This document shows, piece by piece, positions 2,725-15,993 of a DNA stretch of 64,000 nucleotides; position 1 is the first letter of the stretch, and the number at the start of each line of letters is the position of its first letter. The notes beneath the pieces were generated by a model. That model was not told where the DNA came from and did not search any database. It saw only the letters and a program-made list of their open reading frames with translations. Source of the DNA: an uncultured Gemmatimonadales bacterium (lineage in GTDB: Bacteria > Gemmatimonadota > Gemmatimonadetes > Gemmatimonadales > GWC2-71-9); NCBI GenBank assembly GCA_963796635.1, contig CAWCMH010000001.1, forward strand, positions 11,709-75,708, read 5' to 3'. Both the position numbers and the translations under genes were made by a program.

Positions 2725-2925
2725 GGGCGGCGCAAAGATGCGCCGGCGGGCCGCCGGTGCGCAACCGACGGTGATGGGCACGGCTGATCGGGCGCCCGCG
2801 CCGCTCAGGCGCAGGAATCCGCGATCGAACCACGGACGGCACGCGTGTCACGGGCGTGTCTGCGACGCACGCAACTGAATCGGGTCTGCTGCAAGCGGTC
2901 GTTGAGTCGCCTATTTTACCACATC

Positions 2926-5089
2926 ATGGCCGGTGCTTCGAGTTCCCGCGTCGATCGTTTCCGCGCGTTCTGGACCAACCCCCGACACCTCCGCAACCTC
3001 GCCCTCGGCGTGGTCGCGGTGGGGGCCTTCTTCGCGCTGCTGCTGGTGGGCATCTGGACCCGCGCCTGCGCCAACGACGCCTGTCCGGCCGTCGGCACCG
3101 TCGCCGATTACGATCCGTCGCAGGCGTCGCGCGTCTACGCGGCCGATGGCCGCGAAATCGGCGATTTCTTCCGCGACCAGCGGCGGGTGTCGGTGCCCCT
3201 CAAGGAGATGTCGCCCGCGGTGCCGGCCGCCTTCCTGTCGGTCGAGGACAAGCGCTTCTACGAACATCACGGCGTCGACTGGGTGCGCTTCTTCGGCGCG
3301 ATCAAGCACGTCCTGACCACCGGCGGCATCAGCCAGGGCTTCTCGACCATCACGATGCAGTTGCCGGGCAACCTGTGGCCCGACGAGATCAATCGCCGGG
3401 AGCGGTCCGGCCTGCGCGGGATCGTGCGCAAGATTCGCGAGATCCGCATCGCGCACGCCCTCGAGAAGCGCTACACCAAGAATCAGATTCTCGAGCTGTA
3501 CCTCAATCACATCAATCTCGGCAACAGCGCCTACGGTGTCGAAGCCGCGGCGGAGCGCTATTTCGGCAAGTCGGCCCGCAACCTCAACGTCGCCGAGGCG
3601 GCCACGCTCGCCGCGCTGCCGAAGGCGCCGGAGTACTACAACCCGCGCAAGTATCCGCGCAACTCGCTGATGCGCCGCAACCAGGTCATCGAGTTGATGC
3701 GCGATGCCGGCTACCTGCACGCCGACGAGGCCGACGCCTGGGAAGCGTATCCGCTGCAGTTGTCGTCGCGCAGCGATTATCACAGCGATGCCGAGTATTT
3801 CGTCGAATACGTGCGGCAACTGATGCTCGCCAAGTACGGACCCGACGTCGACCGCAGCGGCTACAGCATCTACACGACGCTCGATCTCGACGCGCAGCAA
3901 GCGGCGGTGACGTGCGGTCGATTCGCAACTCACCGCATCGAGAACAACAAGGTCGCGGGCGTCGGCAAGTTCAATCACACCACCTATCGCCGCCTACATG
4001 GAGAAGCACGGCGCGGCCGACGAGGACCGCTCCGACACGCCGTACCTGCAGGGCGCGGCGCTGGTGCTCGAGGCGAAGACCGGCAACATCCTCGCCATGG
4101 TCGGCGGCCGCGACTTCGGCGACTCGAAGTTCAACCGGATCACCCAGGCGCTGCGGCAGCCGGGATCGAGCTTCAAGCCGATCGTCTACACCGCCGCGGT
4201 GGAGTCGGGGATTTCGCTCGACGAGCACGTGCAGGACGCGGCGGTGAGCATTCCGATGCCCGATGGCCAGCCGAACTGGGAGCCGAAGAACTTCGAGGGC
4301 ACGTTCAGCGACTCGATGGTGAGCATTCGCAAGGGGCTCTGGGCGTCGATGAACACCATCGCCGTGCGGGTGGGCGAGCAGGTGGGGATGGGGCCGGTGA
4401 TCGCCGAGGCGCGCAAGTTCGGGATCACCACGCCGATCGATCCGGGACCGTCGCTGTTTCTCGGCACGCCTTCGGTACCGCCCGATCGAGATGATCGCCG
4501 GCTACACCACGTTCGTCAACCAGGGCACCCGCACCATTCCGAACGCGATCCTCCGGGTCGAGGACCGCAACGGCAAGATCATCTGGCAGCCGCAGCCGCA
4601 GACGGTGCGCGTGGTGGATCCGGCGATCGCGTTCACCATGGACGAGGCGTTGCGGGGCGTGGTCACCAACGGAACCGCCACAGCGCCGTGTACCGTGCCG
4701 GATTTACCATGCCGGCCGGCGGCAAGACCGGCACCACCAGCGACTACCACGACGCCTGGTTCATCGGCTTCACGCGCGATCTGGTGGCGGGCGTGTGGAT
4801 GGGCTTCGATCAGCCGGTCACGATCATGCGCAACGCGCAGGGCGGCAAGCTCGCCGCGCCGGCGTGGACGCAGATGATGAACGAGATCTACCAGCGTCGC
4901 CGCGATCCGGGCGACTGGGGAGTGCCGGCCGACTCGATGGTCGCGGTGGTGATCGACAAGACCAACGGCCTGCGCGCCACACCGTTCTGCCCCGACAGCG
5001 TGCGCGAAACGCGCTACTACATCAAGGGTACCGAACCAACGGAGTTCTGCCCGATCCACTCACCGTTCCGGCCGGGCGCCGGGCACTGA
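2926..5089 (+). pseudogene. mrcA: class A penicillin-binding protein (bifunctional transglycosylase/transpeptidase, PBP1A type), three frame changes (about 3990, 4478, 4682)
   Basis: TM anchor LALGVVAVGAFFALLLVGIW. GT51 motifs SVEDKRFYEHHGVD, STITMQL, RKIREI. Transpeptidase motifs PGSSFKP (SxxK) and KTGTT. Pieces come from ORFs 2845..4494, 3998..5089 and 4491..4877 and join colinearly. Confidence 0.9.
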
Positions 5090-6321
5090 TGCTGCGGCTG
5101 GCAGCGCCGTGGGTGCTGCCGATCGACGCGGCCCCGATCGCCGACGGCGCGGTGCTGATCGGCGACGACGGCCGGATCGCGGCGGTTGGTCCCGATCACG
5201 CCGTTGCCGCACCACCGGACGCGCGCAGCAGCGATTCGACGATGCCGTGCTGCTGCCAGGCCTCGTCAACACCCACACCCACCTGGAATTCACCGGCTTC
5301 GCCGGCATGGCCGACGAGGCCGACTTCTGGGAGTGGATCAAGCACATCATCGCCCTCAAGGCGACGCGCGACGAGGAGCAGTTCTTCGACGCCGCGTGCG
5401 CCGGCATCCGGCGTGCTGGCAGGCCGGTGTCACCACCGTCTGCGACATGGGCAACACCGGATCGGTGATCGCGGCGATGGATCATCTGGGTGCCAGCGGC
5501 ATCGCGCATCACGAAGCGTTCGACATGCACACGCTCGAGACGGTGGCAGTCATGAAGCAGTTCTCGCGCGACCTCGATCGTCTCGCCCGTCATGCCACTG
5601 GGCGGGTGCAGCTGGGCGTGTCACCGCATGCGCCGTACACGGTGAGCGGGCCGCTCTACCGCGCGGTGAGCGACCTGGCCCGCGCGCACGGCGTGCCGAT
5701 CGGCGTGCACGTCGCGGAGCCGGCCGACGAGACCGCGTTGTTGCGCGACTTCACCGGCATCTTTGCCGACGCGTTGCGGGCGCGCGGCGTCATGCGGGTC
5801 ACCGACACGCCGACATCGCCGATCGCGTGGCTCGACCAGCACGGCGTGCTTGGGCCTCGCACCATCTGCGCCCACGCGATCCACACCGACGATGCGGACA
5901 CGACGATCATGCTGCAGCGCGGCGTGGCGGTGGCGCACTGTCCGCGGAGCAACCGCCACCATCATCACGCCGACGCCCCGGTGGCCCGCTACGTCGATCG
6001 GGGCCTGCGCATCGGGCTGGGCACCGATTCCGAGGTGAGCGTGGCGCCGCTCGACCTGATCGCCGAGGCGCGCGAGGCGCGGGTGCTGACCGGGTGGAGC
6101 GCGGCCGAGACGTTGCGGGCGCTCACGCTGGGCGGTGCGGAGGCGCTGGGGCTTGCGACCGAGTGCGGCAGCTCACGGTGGGGAAGTGGGCAGACGTCGT
6201 AGCGATTGGGGTCGAGGCTGGAATGCGGGTGGAGGAAGCGCTGGTCGCATCGCAGCTCGGTGACGTGCGGGGGACGTGGCTGGGGGGGCGGAACGTGTAC
6301 CAGTCAGCCCGTTCCCCTTGA
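5089..6321 (+). pseudogene. metal-dependent amidohydrolase (chlorohydrolase / nucleoside-deaminase-like family), three frame changes (about 5226, 5410, 6165)
   Basis: LLPGLVNTHTHLEF metal-binding motif, VSPHAPYTVS, HVAE, AHCPRSN, GTDS, GKWADVVAI tail. Four colinear segments from ORFs 4795..6321, 5109..5468 and 5186..6202. The start ATG overlaps the PBP stop (TGATG). Confidence 0.75.
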
Positions 6322-6372
6322 AAATCCGCCCGTTCGGGGTTATCCATCCGTACCCATATCGGAGCCACCTCG

Positions 6373-6952
6373 TTGCGTTGCCTGGCATTGAACGCCTCCT
6401 TCGAACCACTCACCATGGTCCCCACGCGACGTGCGCTCCGGCTCGTCATCGAGGGCAAGGCGGAGATCGTCGAGGCAGACGGCGGCGAACCGGTTCGAAG
6501 TATGCGGATGGAGATGCCGCGCCCGGCGATCATCCGCCTGGTGCGCTTCGTCCACGTCCCCCGCCGCTTCCGCCGCCAGGTCACCAACACCTTCCTCTTT
6601 GCCCGCGACTCCTACACCTGCCAGTACTGCGCGCGGGTGCAGGGCCAGCTCCGGCTGCGCGAATGCCTCACGCGCGATCACGTGATTCCGCAGTCGCGCG
6701 GCGGCAGCAACGACTGGACCAACGTCGTCACGGCGTGCTCCAGCTGCAACACCCGCAAGGGGAACCGGATGCCCGATGACATCGGGATGCATCCGCTGCG
6801 CGTCGCCGATGGAACCGCACTTCGTGCACCTGTCGTGGGCGATCCGCCGGCTCACCGCGACGCAGCTCAAGTACATCCGGATCTTCTACGGCGAAAGCGC
6901 GCTGGCGGCGATTCGTCCGCACCCGGCGGCCATCACGGCCCTTTCACGGTAA
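6373..6952 (+). pseudogene. HNH endonuclease family protein, one frame change (about 6797)
   Basis: CQYC ... TRDHVIPQSRGG ... NVVTACSSCNTRKG (HNH/zinc ribbon). After MHPLR the conserved tail PMEPHFVHLSWAIRRLT..LKYIRIFYGE is in the +1 frame and ends at TAA 6950..6952. Confidence 0.8.
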
Positions 6953-7527
6953 ACGTCGCGGTCCGCGCTTCGGGCAGGTCTTCGTGGTTGCCGTTCCCCA
7001 TGATCAGCCGCCGCACCAGTTGCGATGCCGCGCTGGAGCCATCGTCGTTGTTGCGCGCATCGCCGGGCGGGTCCGCCGTGATGCTCAACCCCACGGTGTA
7101 GTACCAGCGCCCGGGGGACAGCGTGGCCGGCGTCACCAGTCGGGCCTCGCGACCCACCCACATCGCCAGCGAGTCGGCCGTGTGGAAGGTCTCCGTCGTG
7201 GTCGCATTGCTCGGTGCGCTCCTCGAAGGTGTACACGTCGATGACCGGGACTTCCTGGATGATATCGTCCCACTCGACCGGCGTGAGCGGCCGGTCGATC
7301 AACCGCGACTGCCAGAGCACCACAGTCCAGTGCAGGTGCAGCGGATACGCGCTCGACAACGCGTCGCGCCAGCGCGGGTCGGTGAGCAGGTCGCTGACAT
7401 GCACCACGAGATTGGGAGGGGCGTCGGGCCGCAGCTCCAGGCGCACGCCAATGCGCGCGCGCGCCTGCGCCGGCGCCGCCGTCACGGCGCCAACCAGGAG
7501 AGCGAGTGCAGTGAGCCAGCGCCCCAT
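6933..7527 (-). pseudogene. secreted hypothetical protein, tentatively DUF4390-like; one frame change (about 7205); last gene of the HK/EBP/OMP operon
   Basis: Signal peptide MGRWLTALALLVGAVTAAPAQA. LLTDPRWRDALSSAYPLHLHWTVVLWQSR resembles the DUF4390 core from memory. The C-terminal half continues in the frame of ORF 6933..7163. The start is 5 nt after the stop of 7533..9242. Confidence 0.4.
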
Positions 7528-7532
7528 CGTGC

Positions 7533-9242
7533 CTAGAACCGCGCGTTGAAGAGCAGCAACGCCTGCATGCCGACCGGATCGACCAGCGACTTGGCCAGGT
7601 AGACGCCGACCCACGGCAGGGCGATCCCGGCGCCGACGTCCGATCGCCACTCGTTGATCGCCTCGATCCGGTTGGTCGGCACTCGCCCGGCGCTGTCGCC
7701 CGCCAGCCACGCGCTACCGGCATCGGCGAGCAGCACCAGGTCGGGTTTGCGGATGCCCACGGTGTAGGGTCCGACGCGCGTCGTCAGGTCGATCGGCAAC
7801 GTGTGGTGGTATTCCAGTTGCACCGCGAGTTCCCGGTCGCAGAGCGCCGGCTGGCCGGGATCGGGTTTGCGTCGACGATCGCAGTTGATCGCTCGAAAGT
7901 CGTAGCCCGACAAGGGATCGGCGCCGCCGATCGCGCGGCGCCGCTGGATGGTCAGTGGATCCCCACCGAGATAGCCGCCGCCGGATATCCGACCGTTGAT
8001 GCGCTGTTCCGGATCGATTCGCAGATAGGCCCGGAGGTCGAAGTCCCCTTCGGTCTCGCCGTAGCCGGTCGATGGCAGCGGGTCGCGAATCGCGGTGGGC
8101 AACGACACCGGCTGGAGATCGTTGCTCGCCACGTGGCGCACGGCCACTCGGGTGTACCACTGCAGCACAGGGTGCCGCCGGTCGTCGCGGCCGTCATAGG
8201 TGAACTGCAACGACGCGATGCGGTAGCGGCCGTCGTCGATCAGCGGATTGGCCCGCCAGGTCTGATAGGCGCGGAACAGCGAAAACGCGTTGACCGCCTG
8301 CACCGTGTTCTGCTGACTGATTTCATACGATCCCGACAGCGTGATTTCGGGCCACGGCGTGACATTCGCAAACAGCGAGCCGCCGCGCCGGAGGTACCAG
8401 TCGTGATAATCGCGCCGGAGCAGGATGGCGCTCAGCCCCGACTCGACGGACGAGAACGGCCGATCCTGGGTCGCCGTGATGGTCGATCCGCCTTCGACGC
8501 CCACCGAATACGGCACCGGCCCGCTGTGCGACAACTCCGACTGGACGTGCCAGCCGACCGCCGCGCGACTGTGATTGGGGTCGCTGGCGCTGCGCAGGAC
8601 CAGGTATGCCTGCGAGCGCAGCGTGTCCGCGGGCATCGCCTGCCAGATGGCGTTGGCGCCGACCTGGATCGGCAGCCCCTCGACGCGATTGTACTGTCCC
8701 AGACCCAGGTGCGGCGTCAGGCGCACCTCACCGACATCGATCCCGATTGCCGAGGCGCGCGCGCCGAGTGAACGCGTGGGCGGACGCAGCACGACGGCAC
8801 CATCGCTGCGCGTCATCAGGGCGACCACCGTGTCGCAGGCGCGACGGACGCCGCCGATGCGGCCGCCCGGATCGACGGTGAGCCGGCCGCCCAGCACGGT
8901 GACGTCCCCGGCGACGCGGCCGGTCGCCGTGACGCGGAGGTCGCCATCGAGCACCACGACGCTGCCGCCCACGCTGCCGTCGATCCGCAACGAACCTTGA
9001 TACACGCCATAGGCGCCGCGGGTGGAATCCGGCGCCGGGATGCTGACGCTGCCACGGAAGACGCGCACCGTCGCCGGTGCATTGAATCGCGCCAGCGCCG
9101 CGGCGATGAGAGAATCGTCGGTACAACCGGGCGCCGGCGCCGCGCCCGGCGGCCCCGTATTGATGGTCCGCACCTGGGCCGCCAGCGGGCCCGCCATGCC
9201 GACCACGGTCGCCGCCAGCAGCATGGCGCTTCGGCTCGTCAT
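7533..9242 (-). CDS. outer-membrane protein: signal peptide, bactofilin-like beta-helical segment, Omp85/surface-antigen-like C-terminal beta-barrel (no obvious POTRA)
   Basis: [72 protein letters not shown] is bactofilin-type G.V.G periodicity. The C-terminus has [31 protein letters not shown] and a terminal LLLFNARF. The start overlaps the EBP stop (ATGA). Confidence 0.55.
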
Positions 9243-10618
9243 TCCCCGCCTCCTCCGCGAATCCCCAGCCGGCGCATGCGCCGGTAGAGGTTGCCACGAT
9301 CGGTCTTGAGCAGCCGTGCCGCTTCGGCAATGTTGCCGCCGGCGTTCGCCATCGCGCCGGTGATCAGTTCGCGTTCCGTGTCATCCAGCCGCTCCGTGAG
9401 CCCGCGGCCGTTGTCGGTAAACTCGGCCGTCGTGACGGATACCGGTGCGACGACCCCGAGTCCTCCGGCCCGCAGCACCCGCGGCACCAGATCGCCGGTG
9501 ACTTCGTCGCCGCCGATGATGGTCAGGCGTTCGACGATATTGGCGAGCTCGCGCACGTTGCCGGGCCACGTGTGGCGCCGGAGTGCCGTCAGCGCCTCAT
9601 CGGTGAAATGCGGCGGGTGCCGCGGGCGCAAACGCGCCGCAAGGTGCTGCACCAGCTCGGGGATGTCGTCGAGGCGGTCTCGCAACGGCGGCACCTCGAT
9701 CGGGAAGACGTTGAGCCGGAAGTACAGATCCTCGCGGAAGGTGCCGTTGTGGACCGCGTCCTCGAGCCGTCGGTTCGTGGCGGCCAGTGCCCGGATGTTG
9801 ACGTGGACGGTGCGCTCCGCGCCGATCCGCTGGATGTCGCCGCGTTCGAGCACCCGCAGCAGCTTGGCTTGTGCCTCGAGCTGCAGGTCGCCGATTTCGT
9901 CGAGAAAGAGGGTGCCGCCATCGGCGAGTTCGAAGCGTCCGATCCGCCGATCGGTCGCACCGGTGAATGCACCGCGTTCGTGCCCGAACATCTCGCTTTC
10001 CACCAGGTCGCGCGGAATCGCGGCGCAGTTGACCGACACGAACGGTCCGCGCGCGCGCGGTGAGTAGCGATGGATGGCATTCGCGACCAGCTCCTTGCCG
10101 GTCCCCGATTCGCCGAGAATGAGGACGCGGGCGTCGGTCGGTGCCACCTGGCTGATGAGCTGGCGCACGTGCTCGATTTCGGGGCTGGTGCCCACCAGCG
10201 TCGGCTGCGGACCGAGCGCCTGGCGCAGCGAGCGGTTTTCGGCCTGGGTGCGCACCAGCGTTTCGGCCGAGCGCACGGCGACCAGCAGGGACTCCGGCGC
10301 CAGCGGCTTTTCGAGAAACTGGAAGGCGCCCATCTGCACCGCGCGCACGGCGTCGGCCAGCTGCGCCTTGCCGCTCATCATGATGACGGGGATGTCGTGA
10401 TCGGCCGTGCGAATCTTCTCCAGCGTCGCGAGCCCGTCGGGGCCCGGTGGCATCATCAGGTCGAGCAGGATGATGTCGGGGCGCACGTCGGGAAGCGCCA
10501 GCAACCCGGCGTTGCCGTTGGGCGCTTCGGCGACGTCGAAGTCCTCGGACTTGAGCAGGGCCCCCACCATGCGGCGGATGTTGGCTTCGTCGTCGACGAT
10601 CAACACGCGCGTGCTCAT
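9239..10618 (-). CDS. sigma-54-dependent response regulator (NtrC/NtrX family enhancer-binding protein)
   Basis: Receiver domain ([11 protein letters not shown] ... [10 protein letters not shown]). AAA+ domain with GESGTGKE and GAFTGA. Fis-type [28 protein letters not shown]. True start is ATG 10618, overlapping the kinase stop. The 572-aa ORF 9239..10957 is an upstream extension into the kinase gene. Confidence 0.9.
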
Positions 10619-11793
10619 GCCGGAAACTCGACCACGAACGTCGCGCCGCGCGGTGCGTCGGCCAGGCCGATCGTGCCGCCATGCTGCTCGATGGTCTGCC
10701 GCACGATGGCGAGTCCCAGTCCCGTCCCCGCGGGTTTGTCGGTGTAGTAGGGCTGGAAGATCTTGTCGCGGTTGGCGGCGGGAATGCCGGGCCCGCTGTC
10801 GCGGAAGGTGATGCGAATGCAGCCCTCGTCGAGTGCGACCGCGACGTCCAGCGATCCCTCGCCGTGACAGGCTTCGACGGCGTTGCGCACGATGTTGCTG
10901 AACGCGCGTCGCAGCGGATCGTAGTGCCCGACGAGCGTGACATCGGGCCGATCGCATGTGAAGGTGGATTGCATGCCTTCCGGCACCGCGTTGCGCAGCA
11001 GGTCCTCGAGCAATTCACACAGGTCCACCGCGGCCGCCACGCCTTCCGGAAGCCGGCCGAGCTCGGCGAAGTCGCGCGCCATCGCTTCGAGTCGTGCCGA
11101 TTCCGTGCCGATCACGTCGAGCGCGTCACGCCACTCGGGGGGCGCGTTGCGCGAGAGCTGTCGCACGGCGAGGCGAATCGGTGTCAACGGATTCTTCATT
11201 TCGTGCGCGACGCGACGGGCCACCTCGCCAAAGGCGCGCAGCCGCTCGGCCTCGAGCTCGGCGGCGCGGGCCTGCTCCAGTCCGGCTTGCAGCGTGTAGA
11301 GCGATTGCTGCAACGTCACCAGCTCCGGCGTGGCCCGGCGCGACTGCACCTGCGGCAGCGGGTCGTGCCGGAGAATGCGTCGCGTCCAGTCGACGATCTC
11401 GTTGAGCGGCGCGGCGTACTGCCGCGACAGCATCGCTCCCGCGCCGACCACGAGCAGCACGAAGAAACCGACGACCAGGATCAACGCTACGGCTGCACGC
11501 TCGCCCCATTGCCGTTCGGCGCCGGGTGTCTGCGTCGCGGCGATCATCAGGGAGCGCACACTGTCGTCGTGCTGCTGCAGAGCGGTCCGCTGCGCCGGAG
11601 TGAGCGCAGCCTGACTGAGCTGGGCAAAGGCGCGTGATTCGGTCCGCCCGACCGGGAAGATGTCGGTGTCGGGATTGAGGCGCGGCTGGTGCTTCACCGC
11701 CCAGACGCCGGCCACCGCCATCACCGCCAGCGGAAAGGCGCTGACCGTGAGGAGGGCGATGAACAGGCGGGCTCGAAAGGAGAGGCGGGACAC
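10615..11793 (-). CDS. membrane sensor histidine kinase (2 TM, HAMP, HisKA, HATPase; NtrY/NtrB-like)
   Basis: TM segments [24 protein letters not shown] and [24 protein letters not shown]-box [13 protein letters not shown]-box IVRNAVEA, G-boxes DSGPGI and GTGLGLAIV. Confidence 0.85.
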
Positions 11794-11811
11794 GGTGCAA
11801 AGTTAGCCACC

Positions 11812-11832
11812 GGCGTGTGAATCAGACACGCC
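11812..11832. promoter_or_regulatory. perfect 7-bp inverted repeat GGCGTGT-N7-ACACGCC, candidate enhancer (UAS) for the adjacent sigma-54 promoter
   Basis: Read directly. Lies about 85-100 nt upstream of the predicted start site of the 11889..11904 promoter, in the divergent HK / TonB-like intergenic region. Confidence 0.3.
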
Positions 11833-11888
11833 TGCGTCGGACGAAGCGGCCGGCCGGACGACTTGATGTTCCGGGCCCAACCGGGCTT

Positions 11889-11904
11889 TGGCACCGCTCC
11901 TGCA
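11889..11904 (+). promoter_or_regulatory. sigma-54 (-24/-12) promoter candidate TGGCAC-CGCTC-CTGCA upstream of the TonB-like receptor operon
   Basis: Exact TGGCAC, GG-N10-GC spacing, about 65 nt upstream of ATG 11969, correct strand, intergenic. Confidence 0.5.
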
Positions 11905-11968
11905 CCATGCCAGGCATCCACCGGCCACCGTTCCGGCCGGCCCATGAGCCTTTTCCGACTGGATCGCC

Positions 11969-14900
11969 ATGCCGATGCGGTGTGTAGCCCGGAGGTTTGC
12001 CTCGTTCATTGCGCTTCTCGGCCTGAGCCTCTGCTCATTGGGCCCCGGCCCCCTCGAGGCCCAGAGTCTTACCGCGGGGGGGCTTACCGCGACGATCATG
12101 GACGAGCGCGGTGTCCTTATGCGTGACGTGACGGTGACCGTCGAGCAGGCCGGAGCGGCGCTCCGCACCCTCCAGACAACCCACGCCGGCGTCGTCAATT
12201 TTCCGATCCTGGCCCCCGGCAGCTACAGCGTCCTCGCCGAGCAGCTCGGCTATCAGCCGGTGCGGATGACCGGTGTGGTGGTCGTCAGCGGCGGTGCGAC
12301 GCGAATCACGTTTCGCCTGGTTCGCAAGCCACCGCCCATCAACACTGTCGACGTGGTGGCATCAAACGCACAGGTGACCACGGGGTCGACCGGGGAGACG
12401 CTGTCCGGGACTGACCTGCTCGCCTTTGCACGCCGGGAGGATGTCACCAACACCAGTAGTGCCTTCGCCAGGGCCGACGCGCCGCTCGACGGGAGGGACG
12501 GCTGGATCGAGAGCGGTGACGGCCTGGCCCCGCGATTCTCGACACTGGTCGTCGACGGCGTGCGCGAAGTGCTGCTCCGTCAGCCGGCACTGCGCGGCGA
12601 TCCGGTCACCGCTCCGCTGTTCGGGCGGGATGCGCTCGGACAGGCATCGTTCAGCCAATTCGCGGCCGACGCCGAGTGGCCGGCGGCGGCGGGCGATCTG
12701 CTCAGCGCGCAGTCGGCGCGAGGCGGCCCGCGGTTCACCTTCGATCCGTGGCTCACGGTGTCGAGCGCCAAGGTCGGCGATCGTCATGCCGACAATCCCG
12801 CTGATTCGAGCGCCACATCGGTGCGGGCAGGATTCAGCATGGGCGGCCCGATCAAGGGCGACACCGCCGGCTGGTTCGTGCAAGCCGATTATCAGCACAT
12901 CGCGCTTCCCTCGGCGGATCCATTTGCTGCCGGCATCGCGGGCCCGGATTCAGGGGACGTTGCGGCGGCGATCGGCGCGGCCGCCGGGCAGTATCATCAG
13001 GATGTCGGTCGCTGGGTCTCGCCCACGGTGCGCACTTGGGAGGGCGGCAGTGGACTCGCCCGCCTCGACTGGCGCTTCGGCGCCAACACGCTGCTGGCGG
13101 TGCGCGCCGGCGGGGCGTCGTGGAGCGAGGACAATGCCGACGTGGGGCAGGAGCTCGTCAATGGCGCCGGGTCACGGTTGCAGGCGCACGATGTCAGTGG
13201 GTCGGCTGCGCTGACCACGGGCGGCGACTCGTGGTCGAGCGACACGCGCGTCGGCGTGCATAGCAGTTCGCGTGACTGGACTGGTGCGGCATTGCCGTAC
13301 ACCGGCATGGTCGGCGACGGCATCGCCATCGGCGGCGCGTTCACGCTGCCCGGCAACTTCAGCGACAACGGTGTCGGTCTCTACGAAACTGTCACGTTGC
13401 ACGCCGGCGACCACACGGTCAAGCTGGGCGGATCGGTGGAAGGCCGGACGATCAATTACAGCTGGCTTCCCGGATCGAGCGGCCGCTACGAGTTTGGTGA
13501 TGTCGCATCGTTCGCGGCCGATGAGGGCGCGTACTACCAGGCATTCCGTTCCGCCGCGGCACCCGACCTGCCCATCCATGATGTGACGTTGTTCGCCGAG
13601 GACTCGTGGCGTCCCCTGACAGGGCTCGAGCTGTTTGGCGGTGTGCAGTACGCACGCGAATCGCTGCCGACCGGCGTGATCCAGTTCGATTCCGTCTGGT
13701 CGTACACGTCGGGCGTTCGCAACGACGCCGTCCCGACCGACAGCAAATCCGGCGGGTTCGGGCCACGCGGCGGCTTCACCTGGGATGCCAGCGGTACGGG
13801 CGCCACCACGGTGCGCGGCGACGTCGGCATTGCGCCCGGGCACTTCGATGAATTGGCACTTGCCGAGGTGGCGCAATTCGACGGCGACGTGACGGTACGT
13901 CGTGCCACCGGGGCGCTGACGTGGCCCGCAGTCGGCACCGATGCCGGAACGGCCGTCGGGCAGTCCCTCACGCTGTTCAATTTCGGCGTCCGCAAGCCGC
14001 GCAGTTACAAGTCGAGCCTGTCGCTCACGCAGCGACTGGGATCGGCCGCGACCCTGACAATCCATGGCGCGTACTACCACACCGACTACCTGCTGCGCCG
14101 CACCGACATGAATCGCCCGGCCGGTTCAGTGGCGACCGGCAGCGACGGCCGGCCGATCTACGGATCGCTAGTGCAGTATGGTGGACTCATCACGCCTGCC
14201 GTGGGGTCGAATCGCCGATTCGATCAATTCGACATGGTGTACGGGTTGACGTCCGACGGCTACACCAATGACTACGAGGCCGGCGTGACTCTGGAGCGTC
14301 ATGTGGGTCGCGGCATCGATGCGTTGCTTGCCTATGTCTACTCACGCACCACCGACAACCTGCCGGGCCAGCTCAGCGCCGACCCCGCGGACCAGTTGTC
14401 ACCGTTTCCGGACGGCCTGAATGGCGCATCGTGGGACCCAGGCCGATCCGACCTCGACATTCCCCACCGCGTGGCGTTCACGGTGACGTACACGTCGCCG
14501 GGAGCGGCGCCCTTCACGCTGGCGGCGCGCTATCGGTACCGCTCCGGATTGCCGTTCACGCCGGGCTTTCGCCCGGGCGTCGACGCCAACGGTGACGGCT
14601 CGGGTGGCAATGATCCGGCGTATCTCGGCGGCGACATCAGCGGTGTGAATGCGCTGGCCGGCAGTAATGCCTGCCTCGGCTCACAACTCAACCAGATCGC
14701 GAGCCGGAACAGTTGTCGCGATCCCGGTGTACAGGCGCTCGACCTGACGCTCGGCGTTCCGCTGCCGATCGGTGGTTCGCATCGAGTGCAACTCACCGTC
14801 GACGCCTTCAACCTCGCCGGGTCGGCAACCGGATTGTACGATCATGCGGCGGTGCTGGTCGATCCTGCGGGCACCATCACCTATGACGGCAGCGGTCATC

Positions 14901-14998
14901 TGGTGCTGCCCCTGATCGCCAATCCCGATTTTGGCCAACTGCTCAGCCGGCGCGGCATCCCGCGCCAGATCCGGGTCGGATTCCGGGTGGAGAATTGA
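11969..14998 (+). CDS. TonB-dependent-receptor-like outer-membrane protein with N-terminal carboxypeptidase-regulatory-like domain
   Basis: Signal peptide. The segment GLTATIMDERGVLMRDVTVTVEQAG...GSYSVLAEQLGYQPV...RITFRL is CarboxypepD_reg-like. About 850 aa follow, rich in Gly/Tyr/Asp alternating beta-strand-like sequence. Intact 1009-aa ORF. Confidence 0.75.
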   Translation: MPMRCVARRFASFIALLGLSLCSLGPGPLEAQSLTAGGLTATIMDERGVLMRDVTVTVEQAGAALRTLQTTHAGVVNFPILAPGSYSVLAEQLGYQPVRMTGVVVVSGGATRITFRLVRKPPPINTVDVVASNAQVTTGSTGETLSGTDLLAFARREDVTNTSSAFARADAPLDGRDGWIESGDGLAPRFSTLVVDGVREVLLRQPALRGDPVTAPLFGRDALGQASFSQFAADAEWPAAAGDLLSAQSARGGPRFTFDPWLTVSSAKVGDRHADNPADSSATSVRAGFSMGGPIKGDTAGWFVQADYQHIALPSADPFAAGIAGPDSGDVAAAIGAAAGQYHQDVGRWVSPTVRTWEGGSGLARLDWRFGANTLLAVRAGGASWSEDNADVGQELVNGAGSRLQAHDVSGSAALTTGGDSWSSDTRVGVHSSSRDWTGAALPYTGMVGDGIAIGGAFTLPGNFSDNGVGLYETVTLHAGDHTVKLGGSVEGRTINYSWLPGSSGRYEFGDVASFAADEGAYYQAFRSAAAPDLPIHDVTLFAEDSWRPLTGLELFGGVQYARESLPTGVIQFDSVWSYTSGVRNDAVPTDSKSGGFGPRGGFTWDASGTGATTVRGDVGIAPGHFDELALAEVAQFDGDVTVRRATGALTWPAVGTDAGTAVGQSLTLFNFGVRKPRSYKSSLSLTQRLGSAATLTIHGAYYHTDYLLRRTDMNRPAGSVATGSDGRPIYGSLVQYGGLITPAVGSNRRFDQFDMVYGLTSDGYTNDYEAGVTLERHVGRGIDALLAYVYSRTTDNLPGQLSADPADQLSPFPDGLNGASWDPGRSDLDIPHRVAFTVTYTSPGAAPFTLAARYRYRSGLPFTPGFRPGVDANGDGSGGNDPAYLGGDISGVNALAGSNACLGSQLNQIASRNSCRDPGVQALDLTLGVPLPIGGSHRVQLTVDAFNLAGSATGLYDHAAVLVDPAGTITYDGSGHLVLPLIANPDFGQLLSRRGIPRQIRVGFRVEN

Positions 14999-15993
14999 TG
15001 ATGCGCGACTTCACTCGGTGCTGCGCACTCGTGCTCGGCATTACGGCCTGCACCAATGCCGGCGAACAGAACACGCTGCCGACGCTGACGCGTGGGTCGA
15101 TCGGCGTGGCGGTGTACCTCGATCGCAATGCCACGCACGCGTTCGACGCGGGCGACACCACCTTCGCCGGCGTGCGCGTCGCGCTGCTGCTCCCGGGCGG
15201 CACCGACACACTCCGCACCGCGACGACCAACGATCTCGGCGAGGCCGCGTTCGACTCGCTGCCGATCGGCACGTATCGCATCGCCGTCGATCGTCACGCA
15301 CTCGGCGACTCGATCGGCGTGGTCGCGGGCGACACCGGCACCATCCAGATCGTGGCACTGCCACCGTCGGCTTCGGCGGCGGCGCGGGTGGTTCGTCTCG
15401 GCTTCAGTGAAGTGGATCTGGCACAAGCGCGCGCGCTCCCGGTGGGGCAGCGGGTCATCGTGCGTGCGCGGGTGACCTCGCCGTTGCAGGCGTTCCGCGA
15501 TACGAGCGCTTTTCTCAACGACACGTCAGGATATATCCGCGTGCTGCACGCGGTGCCGCAAACCGGCACGGCCGGCAATGTGGCCGGGGATTCGGTGCTG
15601 GTGCTCGCGACCACCGACAGCGCTGCAGGACAGCCGGTCCTGCGTGACGGGCACTTCACGCGGATCGCGGCGGCCCTGGCACCCACGCCGGTGCTGGTCA
15701 GCGTCGCGGAGGCGCGGACGGCGAACGACGATTCGCTCGACGCCGCGTACGTGCAACTGAGCAACGTGACCATTGTCGACACGATGGCGGCGACGCCCGA
15801 CTTCGCGATCACCGTGGCCGACTCGACCGACAGCACCACCACCATCAAGGTGGTGCTCGATCAACTGCTCAACGCCCCGCACGGTGTGTTCGTGCCCGGG
15901 CGCACGGCAACGTTGCGCGGCGTGCTGATTCCGGCCGGCGACGGGACCTGGTTCCTCAAGCCACGCAGCTCGACGGATGTGGTGCTGAACTAG
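14995..15993 (+). CDS. hypothetical lipoprotein (Cna-B/SdrD-like fold then OB-fold-like modules, tentative)
   Basis: MMMRDFTRCCALVLGITACTN lipobox. GVRVALLLPGG..TTNDLGEAAFDSLPIGTYRIAV. Start overlaps the receptor stop (ATGATGATG), which implies co-transcription. Confidence 0.45.
   Translation: MMMRDFTRCCALVLGITACTNAGEQNTLPTLTRGSIGVAVYLDRNATHAFDAGDTTFAGVRVALLLPGGTDTLRTATTNDLGEAAFDSLPIGTYRIAVDRHALGDSIGVVAGDTGTIQIVALPPSASAAARVVRLGFSEVDLAQARALPVGQRVIVRARVTSPLQAFRDTSAFLNDTSGYIRVLHAVPQTGTAGNVAGDSVLVLATTDSAAGQPVLRDGHFTRIAAALAPTPVLVSVAEARTANDDSLDAAYVQLSNVTIVDTMAATPDFAITVADSTDSTTTIKVVLDQLLNAPHGVFVPGRTATLRGVLIPAGDGTWFLKPRSSTDVVLN

Follow-up and report, generated by a model that had tools for sequence, protein, structure and literature searches.

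A conserved operon of histidine kinase, sigma-54 activator, Omp85-type barrel protein and DUF4390 protein in Gemmatimonadota, a candidate envelope-spanning signalling module

The periplasmic DUF4390 protein PlrP of Bordetella is the third component of the NtrYX-type two-component system PlrSR, where genetics shows PlrP to be needed for holding back the phosphatase activity of PlrS, an NtrY-type kinase, via the periplasmic domain of that kinase (J Bacteriol 2026; PMC13001219). In Beta- and Gammaproteobacteria, every plrP homolog has ntrYX homologs within 5 kb, and the same paper asked whether such periplasmic partners occur outside Proteobacteria (PMC13001219). Here we describe a four-gene locus in which a DUF4390 protein is encoded together with a histidine kinase, a sigma-54 activator and an outer-membrane barrel protein. 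The locus lies in a window of 64,000 nucleotides, by which we mean the whole stretch of DNA that was analysed (contig CAWCMH010000001.1, positions 11,709 to 75,708, of the uncultured Gemmatimonadales bacterium assembly GCA_963796635.1). The G+C content of the window is about 68%, and its closest relatives are all Gemmatimonadota. A preliminary description made from the sequence alone had pointed to the neighbourhood of DUF4390 and NtrYX genes in Betaproteobacteria, which the Bordetella study confirms (PMC13001219); it could name no described function for the locus, whereas DUF4390 now has one in PlrP as the third component of PlrSR.

Operon layout and conservation of the gene order

The four genes stand head to tail on the minus strand. 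A sensor histidine kinase (HK; 10615..11793, 392 amino acids, GTG start) is followed by an NtrC-family sigma-54 enhancer-binding response regulator (EBP; 9239..10618, 459 amino acids), an outer-membrane protein (OMP; 7533..9242, 569 amino acids) and a predicted periplasmic DUF4390 (PlrP-like) protein, hereafter gene 4, which starts at 7527. Read through a frameshift, gene 4 spans 6933..7527 (a composite of about 197 amino acids), while the open reading frame (ORF) as written runs 7527..6886. HK and EBP overlap by ATGA, as do EBP and OMP, and the OMP stop codon TAG is separated by 5 nt from the ATG of gene 4. The coupled four-gene layout, both overlaps and the short gap had been reported in the preliminary description, and all were found again in the sequence, so that the structure, order and coupling of the four genes are a matter of direct observation. 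A scan inside the operon region predicted neither a sigma-70-like promoter nor an intrinsic terminator.

The order HK-EBP-OMP-DUF4390 is kept over about 100 loci. Among 85 Gemmatimonadales-type loci with OMP identities of 35-84%, and with counts limited to loci with enough DNA, OMP lies upstream of gene 4 in 78/78, EBP ahead of OMP in 71/72 and HK upstream in 58/58. A search of metagenome contigs with the DUF4390 profile led to a set of deep-branch loci, in which OMP is still recognised by its profile at 220-300 bits and the order is the same (OMP 24/24, EBP 19/19, HK 16/16). The neighbourhood check proposed in the preliminary description has thus been run, and the four genes co-occur in both groups. 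By heuristic start codons, EBP and OMP overlap by 4 nt in 55 of the 78 loci of the Gemmatimonadales type and in 13 of the 26 from the deep branch, and the spacing between OMP and gene 4 is mostly 0-10 nt or again a 4-nt overlap. Tight spacing is therefore common to the relatives and not peculiar to the window.

In the deep branch and in the close relative L004 the four genes are kept while the flanking genes are different, which argues that the four genes travel as a unit and not by general synteny. In L004 and L005, two relatives at 84% identity, the genes around the module are of the GH39/Big_2 and glycosyltransferase kinds, and the flanks contain neither the divergent barrel gene described below nor the HNH, amidohydrolase and PBP1A genes. 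Eight deep-branch loci (L086, L095, L098, L100-L103 and L123) have a gap of about 700 nt between HK and EBP, with room for an extra gene, and in L095 this gap holds a stop-to-stop ORF of 277 codons; HK and EBP overlap in the window and in close relatives.

The order persists even where OMP identity has fallen to about 35% and DUF4390 identity to about 20%, and into a branch with other flanks, with the 4-nt overlaps maintained. This also bears on the reading that the genes are neighbours only by inherited synteny in one phylum, with HK and EBP as a common two-component pair and the genes for OMP and DUF4390 as passengers without a functional tie to it. We regard such passive linkage as very improbable, even though all loci recovered with organism names are Gemmatimonadota and many loci also keep PBP1A, amidohydrolase, HNH and VanZ genes around the module, the more so as Proteobacteria provide an independent case, an NtrYX-type system being present there within 5 kb of every DUF4390 gene (PMC13001219). 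A different history had been suggested before, namely an ancient HK/EBP/DUF4390 linkage into which OMP was inserted in one lineage. This found no clear support: OMP is part of every module examined, no Gemmatimonadota-type module without it was found, the deepest branch included, and the kinase is not NtrY-like.

Compared with PlrP-PlrS-PlrR, the locus likewise combines a DUF4390 protein of about 200 amino acids, predicted to be secreted, with a histidine kinase and an NtrC/NtrX-type regulator in a tight gene cluster, and the association is likewise invariant within the lineage. The differences are several. In the kinase, a periplasmic loop of about 60 amino acids takes the place of PDC, and PAS is lacking; the DUF4390 gene closes the operon instead of opening it; the regulator keeps GAFTGA and has a sigma-54 promoter next door; and an Omp85-like gene stands between regulator and DUF4390 gene. 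In addition, the host belongs to Gemmatimonadota and not to Beta- or Gammaproteobacteria, and there is no rsmB or trkAH context. DUF4390 genes thus accompany two-component systems of the NtrC type in two distant phyla, with differing kinases. To the question raised for PlrP, the module gives the answer yes for a distant phylum, with a kinase of a different kind and a clearly sigma-54-dependent regulator, and it adds an obligate outer-membrane partner of a type absent from the list of described Omp85 subfamilies. A comparable case, summarised in that paper, is NtrZ of Caulobacter, a periplasmic accessory protein proposed to lower NtrY phosphatase activity (PMC13001219). NtrZ-NtrY-NtrX shares with our module the periplasmic accessory protein with a proposed action on kinase phosphatase activity; in contrast, NtrZ is not a DUF4390 protein, is not encoded beside ntrYX and has no outer-membrane partner.

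The four gene products

The identities that the preliminary description had given to the kinase and the regulator were confirmed by Pfam domains and by the GAFTGA motif. HK matches HisKA (2.9e-10) and HATPase_c (5.3e-25). Its hydropathy profile shows a first transmembrane segment at about residues 6-33, a periplasmic loop of about 60 amino acids and a second transmembrane segment at about residues 95-125, followed by linker, DHp and CA domains; neither a PAS nor a PDC domain was detected with Pfam, NCBIfam or hydropathy. Orthologs from distant loci have the same build with the same small sensor loop, and the kinase of L004 is matched over its full length with 88.5% identity. On this architecture we rejected membership in the NtrY group. 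The DUF4390 gene accordingly adjoins a kinase, but not one of the NtrY/PlrS type with PDC, HAMP and PAS domains.

EBP matches Sigma54_activat (3.7e-71), Response_reg (4e-28), HTH_8 (1e-9) and the AAA lid, and its GAFTGA is read as 'ERGAFTGA' in the sequence. With a REC domain, an AAA+ domain carrying the GAFTGA loop and a C-terminal helix-turn-helix of the Fis type, it has the features that define the NtrC family. The assignment does not go further, as the NCBIfam models for NtrC, AtoC and NtrX all score 395-413 bits, below their respective cut-offs, and do not separate the three (NtrX, for example, reaches 395 bits with a cut-off of 600 and is no better than NtrC or AtoC). In the PDB, FleQ, Brucella NtrX (5M7N) and NtrC1 are matched at about 300-314 bits; the alignment with 5M7N extends end to end at 304 bits, close to the scores of FleQ and NtrC1.

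OMP is predicted to consist of a signal peptide, a short helix (amino acids 43-53), a bactofilin-like periplasmic beta-solenoid (amino acids 59-152; 8787..9068, minus strand) and an Omp85-type beta-barrel (amino acids 173-569; 7536..8726, minus strand) that ends in R-F. Scanned alone, it yields only sub-threshold matches, to Bactofilin (22.2 bits, cut-off 27.9) and to DUF5686, and no match to Omp85 (PF01103). The picture is clearer at the level of the family, for which hidden Markov model (HMM) matches were counted at E<=0.01 among 69 OMP relatives: 38/69 match Bactofilin (best 1.3e-5), 27/69 match PF01103 (best 4.7e-10), 16/69 match DUF5686 and 0/69 match POTRA. An AlphaFold2 model built from 69 sequences (mean predicted local distance difference test score, pLDDT, 85.6) places the helix at residues 43-53, short strands at 59-152 and the barrel at 173-569, with about 16-17 barrel strands as counted by eye in the DSSP list; the region ahead of the barrel is made up of the solenoid and one short helix. 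In a Foldseek search of the PDB with this model, the top 50 matches are all barrels of BamA, TamA or Sam50 (E 1e-9 to 2e-7). The profile of the N-terminal domain, in turn, matches only the bactofilins 6RIA (0.0024) and 2N3D (0.0028) in the PDB, the next match being a maltose O-acetyltransferase at E 0.27.

By its modelled barrel fold, OMP is a member of the Omp85 superfamily, with a predicted bactofilin-like beta-solenoid in the position of the POTRA domains. The segment that the preliminary description had placed ahead of the barrel as a substitute for POTRA thus holds at family level, by HMMs, AlphaFold2 and Foldseek together. Compared with the Omp85 superfamily (BamA, TamA, 'noNterm' and DUF5686-type proteins), OMP has the same barrel fold (Foldseek E about 1e-9), the beta-13 motif F-x-D-x-G, the terminal aromatic residue and weak HMM links to PF01103 and PF18939. 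In full, the conserved beta-13 motif is (F/L)-x-D-x-G-S-A-W at amino acids 505-512, and the terminal R-F is conserved as well. OMP differs from the superfamily in having a beta-solenoid of about 95 amino acids instead of POTRA domains, and a beta-solenoid is not among the N-terminal domain types of the ten described Omp85 subfamilies (PMC4104836, PMC11358297). Loop 6 differs too: it reads L-x-G-Y-x-F-R (amino acids 444-450), with P, A or S in place of the arginine of the canonical lid-lock motif (V/I/L)RG(F/Y) (PMC11358297). The loop-6 motif is followed by a long conserved loop segment with an invariant pair of cysteines (Cys 454 and Cys 468; about 7839-7883, minus strand), which is rich in arginine (N-C-D-R-R-R-x-P-D-P-x-x-P-A-L-C-D-R); the two cysteines probably form a disulfide.

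The likeness to bactofilins (BacA 2N3D, Thermus 6RIA; PF04519) lies in the repeated G-x-V/I windings of the beta-helix. It is a likeness and not membership: OMP carries an N-terminal signal peptide, as read from the sequence, its solenoid is fused to an outer-membrane barrel and its scores stay below threshold, and it cannot be a cytoplasmic polymer-forming cytoskeletal protein. We therefore rejected the candidate assignment of the N-terminus as a true cytoskeletal bactofilin. The automatic database names of OMP relatives conflict with one another ('BamA/TamA family outer membrane protein', 'polymer-forming cytoskeletal protein' and 'hypothetical protein'). The second of these is misleading, an artefact of the bactofilin HMM matching the periplasmic solenoid, and is corrected here. 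Our literature search found no paper naming Omp85 together with bactofilin.

Gene 4 encodes a protein of about 200 amino acids that is predicted to be secreted, with a signal peptide read from the sequence; in all orthologs (194-203 amino acids) a hydrophobic N-terminus ends in AQA. Neither half of the frameshifted gene in the window matches any Pfam or NCBIfam model. Its assignment comes from the family, in which 27/59 orthologs match Pfam DUF4390 (PF14334) and three of five members scanned singly reach the DUF4390 cut-off (27.1-27.9 bits vs 27). An exhaustive profile search of 1.84 billion representatives returned only 314 relatives. A more distant clade among these matches DUF4390 in 59/66 cases (best 2.9e-11), and hhalign joins the gene 4 family to this DUF4390-positive clade with 99.9% probability (E 4e-32). 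By these profile comparisons, the product is a divergent DUF4390 protein at family level, as the preliminary description had proposed, although the two halves in the window match nothing by themselves. The AlphaFold2 model of a close homolog (pLDDT 86.5) is mostly beta-strand with few short helices. A fold search of the DUF4390 model against the PDB returned nothing at E<=0.001, the best matches being weak, such as the fimbrial subunit AggA, and so gave no pointer to a function.

Gene 4 starts at 7527, but there is no continuous ORF from there to 6933, the end given in the preliminary description, which had overlooked a frameshift; 6933 is the end of the read-through composite. The frame opened at 7527 runs to 6886 (213 amino acids), and similarity to homologs is lost after about residue 106; the homolog-like C-terminal half continues in the +1 frame to a stop at 6933. 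Gene 4 of L004, whose OMP is 84% identical, is intact (197 amino acids), and the DNA alignment of the two reveals a 1-nt insertion in the window at about 7211 (ACCGAGCAATG vs ACCG-CCAATG in L004). Compared with intact homologs, at least six frame switches occur within 4.6 kb of the window (2900-7530), including one in the PBP1A gene at about 3994, three in the amidohydrolase gene between 5092 and 6297 and one in the HNH gene at about 6790. HK, EBP, OMP and the two divergent genes, the five other genes checked, are intact, and the approximately 9 kb from 7533 to 15993 are clean. With at least six switches clustered there and the adjoining 9 kb clean, the likeliest source of the frameshift in gene 4, judged from the sequence, is an error of assembly, and the cluster looks like a local consensus error rather than mass pseudogenisation. 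A sequence identical to OMP is on record on a contig of 3.2 Mb.

The insertion could instead be real, in which case the module would be decaying in this genome, with a truncated or garbled DUF4390 protein and a deregulated system. The insertion lies outside any homopolymer run and the shifted ORF stays open for 213 amino acids, as decay would allow, but its position at the edge of the damaged 4.6 kb, several of whose switches fall in the PBP1A and amidohydrolase genes, next to 9 kb of clean sequence, fits the local consensus error of a long-read assembly, and gene 4 is intact in all relatives at 194-203 amino acids. We therefore consider decay improbable.

Sigma-54 promoter, divergent operon and a proposed signalling route

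Just outside the region covered by the preliminary description, and missed by it, is a predicted sigma-54 promoter that points to a likely output of the system. The sequence TGGCACCGCTCCTGCA (TGGCAC-N5-CTGCA; 11889..11904, plus strand) has its GG at 11890-91 and its GC at 11902-03 and sits 65 nt upstream of the ATG of a divergent gene, within the 175 nt that separate the HK start from 11969. In a scan of the window for TGGCAC-N5-TTGCW, matches were no more frequent than expected by chance; one match, with 1 mismatch, is that at 11889-11904 (+). L001 and L002 carry this 16-mer unchanged at the corresponding position, and L003 carries it with one base altered, in each case amid DNA that has diverged. 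Of 49 loci in which HK adjoins the divergent gene, 45 have the motif at <=2 mismatches and 41 at <=1, and in 1.6 Mb of locus DNA 38 of 40 matches to the strict pattern are at this site and on the correct strand.

The divergent gene (11969..14998, plus strand, 1009 amino acids) encodes a TonB-dependent-receptor-like barrel with CarboxypepD_reg and OMP_b-brl_4 domains by Pfam, and adjoins HK in 49 related loci. Its stop overlaps the start of a downstream partner (TGATG; 14998..15993, plus strand, about 331 amino acids) that carries an LGITAC lipobox and an Ig domain resembling SdrD_B/CarboxypepD_reg, and the two genes are co-conserved. The pairing of barrel and lipoprotein resembles SusC/SusD-type transporter-lipoprotein pairs. 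This operon is probably the regulated output of the system, and the promoter at 11889-11904 is the likely target of EBP, an assignment inferred from adjacency only.

A perfect inverted repeat, GGCGTGT-N7-ACACGCC (11812..11832), which lies about 57-77 nt ahead of the -24 element and shortly before the HK start, is a candidate EBP-binding site. In L002 and L003 another palindrome, TGTTGC-N6-GCAACA, stands about 80-95 nt ahead of the -24 element, and it is also present between the divergent genes in L007, L008, L019, L028 and L035; the palindromes that differ between lineages could possibly be co-evolving EBP sites.

The trans-envelope systems RcsF-BamA/OmpA-IgaA-Rcs and FecA-FecR-FecI, in which a signalling protein of the inner membrane receives information from a barrel in the outer membrane and a partner exposed to the periplasm, provide an analogy for the idea only: no component is homologous, the transducer in our locus is a classical pair of histidine kinase and sigma-54 EBP, and the interaction is postulated. 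We cautiously favour, at somewhat better than even chances, an envelope-spanning signalling module in which a sigma-54-dependent two-component system, together with two accessory proteins of the envelope, would control the divergent outer-membrane operon. With a periplasmic loop of only about 60 amino acids, HK would not sense directly and would receive its input via the DUF4390 protein. The secreted DUF4390 protein would bind the HK loop and set the balance of kinase and phosphatase activities, as proposed for PlrP on PlrS, and the periplasmic beta-solenoid of OMP would dock or sequester the DUF4390 protein and so relay an outer-membrane condition inward. Phosphorylated EBP would then activate the promoter at 11889-11904 and switch on the barrel and lipoprotein operon. 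The most specific form of this proposal, in which a POTRA-less Omp85 barrel has been recruited as outer-membrane sensor, with a solenoid that captures or releases DUF4390 to control sigma-54-dependent transcription of an uptake system, is tentative and, in our estimate, rather doubtful. If it were true, OMP would provide the first case of an Omp85 protein taking part in signalling, and the module the first three- or four-component system built on DUF4390 in a phylum other than Proteobacteria.

The main rival concerns the role of OMP, which might be a specialised assembly or translocation factor, a paralog of the BamA/TamA/TpsB kind that is only co-expressed with the regulators and whose cargo could be, for example, the neighbouring barrel or the DUF4390 protein. 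Its barrel is of the Omp85 type and keeps the beta-13 F-x-D-x-G motif and the terminal Phe, POTRA-less Omp85 proteins are thought to be able to serve membrane-protein biogenesis (PMC4104836), and the 1009-amino-acid barrel gene is its usual neighbour. OMP is, however, encoded in the regulator operon, coupled between EBP and DUF4390 and outside the sigma-54-driven target operon, and loci without the large barrel gene still carry it together with HK, EBP and DUF4390; it also has no POTRA domains for substrate handling, and the loop-6 Arg is not conserved. We consider an assembly role unlikely, though a reading to be reckoned with.

Several points weigh against the proposed signalling module as a whole. 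The roles given to OMP and the DUF4390 protein are drawn from analogy and co-occurrence, and the PlrP mechanism may not transfer to a kinase that has neither PDC nor PAS domain and is not NtrY/PlrS-like; the gene order also differs from plrP-plrS-plrR. OMP has not kept the canonical loop-6 Arg. The deep-branch loci and L004 have neither the adjacent barrel gene nor the strict sigma-54 motif, which implies that the output is not always next door; in L004, whose HK has no such motif upstream, the genes under control must be situated at another place in the genome. The promoter in the window could be served by another EBP, and no family-wide EBP-binding sequence emerged, GTGT-N7-ACAC being present in only 6/75 loci and TGTTGC-N6-GCAACA in a subset. 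No ORF with an RpoN box was found within the window, none of the public RNA runs searched contains the operon sequence, and two soil-metagenome DNA runs, which share 7-8% of words, miss the insertion site in gene 4. The conserved sigma-54 promoter offers a concrete, testable output and a possible reporter for the functions of DUF4390 and POTRA-less Omp85 proteins.

Upstream of the kinase gene

On the other side of the intergenic gap, the sequence TAACTTTG at 11798-11805 (minus strand) ends 4 nt ahead of the GTG of HK and matches TAnnTTTG, the consensus of the Bacteroidetes-type -7 promoter box. The position of the box suggests that the HK mRNA is leaderless or near-leaderless. In relatives, a box of the TA..TT type lies 7-15 nt ahead of the HK start in 9/75 loci by the strict pattern, with 0.8 expected, and looser boxes upstream of HK, such as CTAACTT and GTACATTATG, are present in many more loci.

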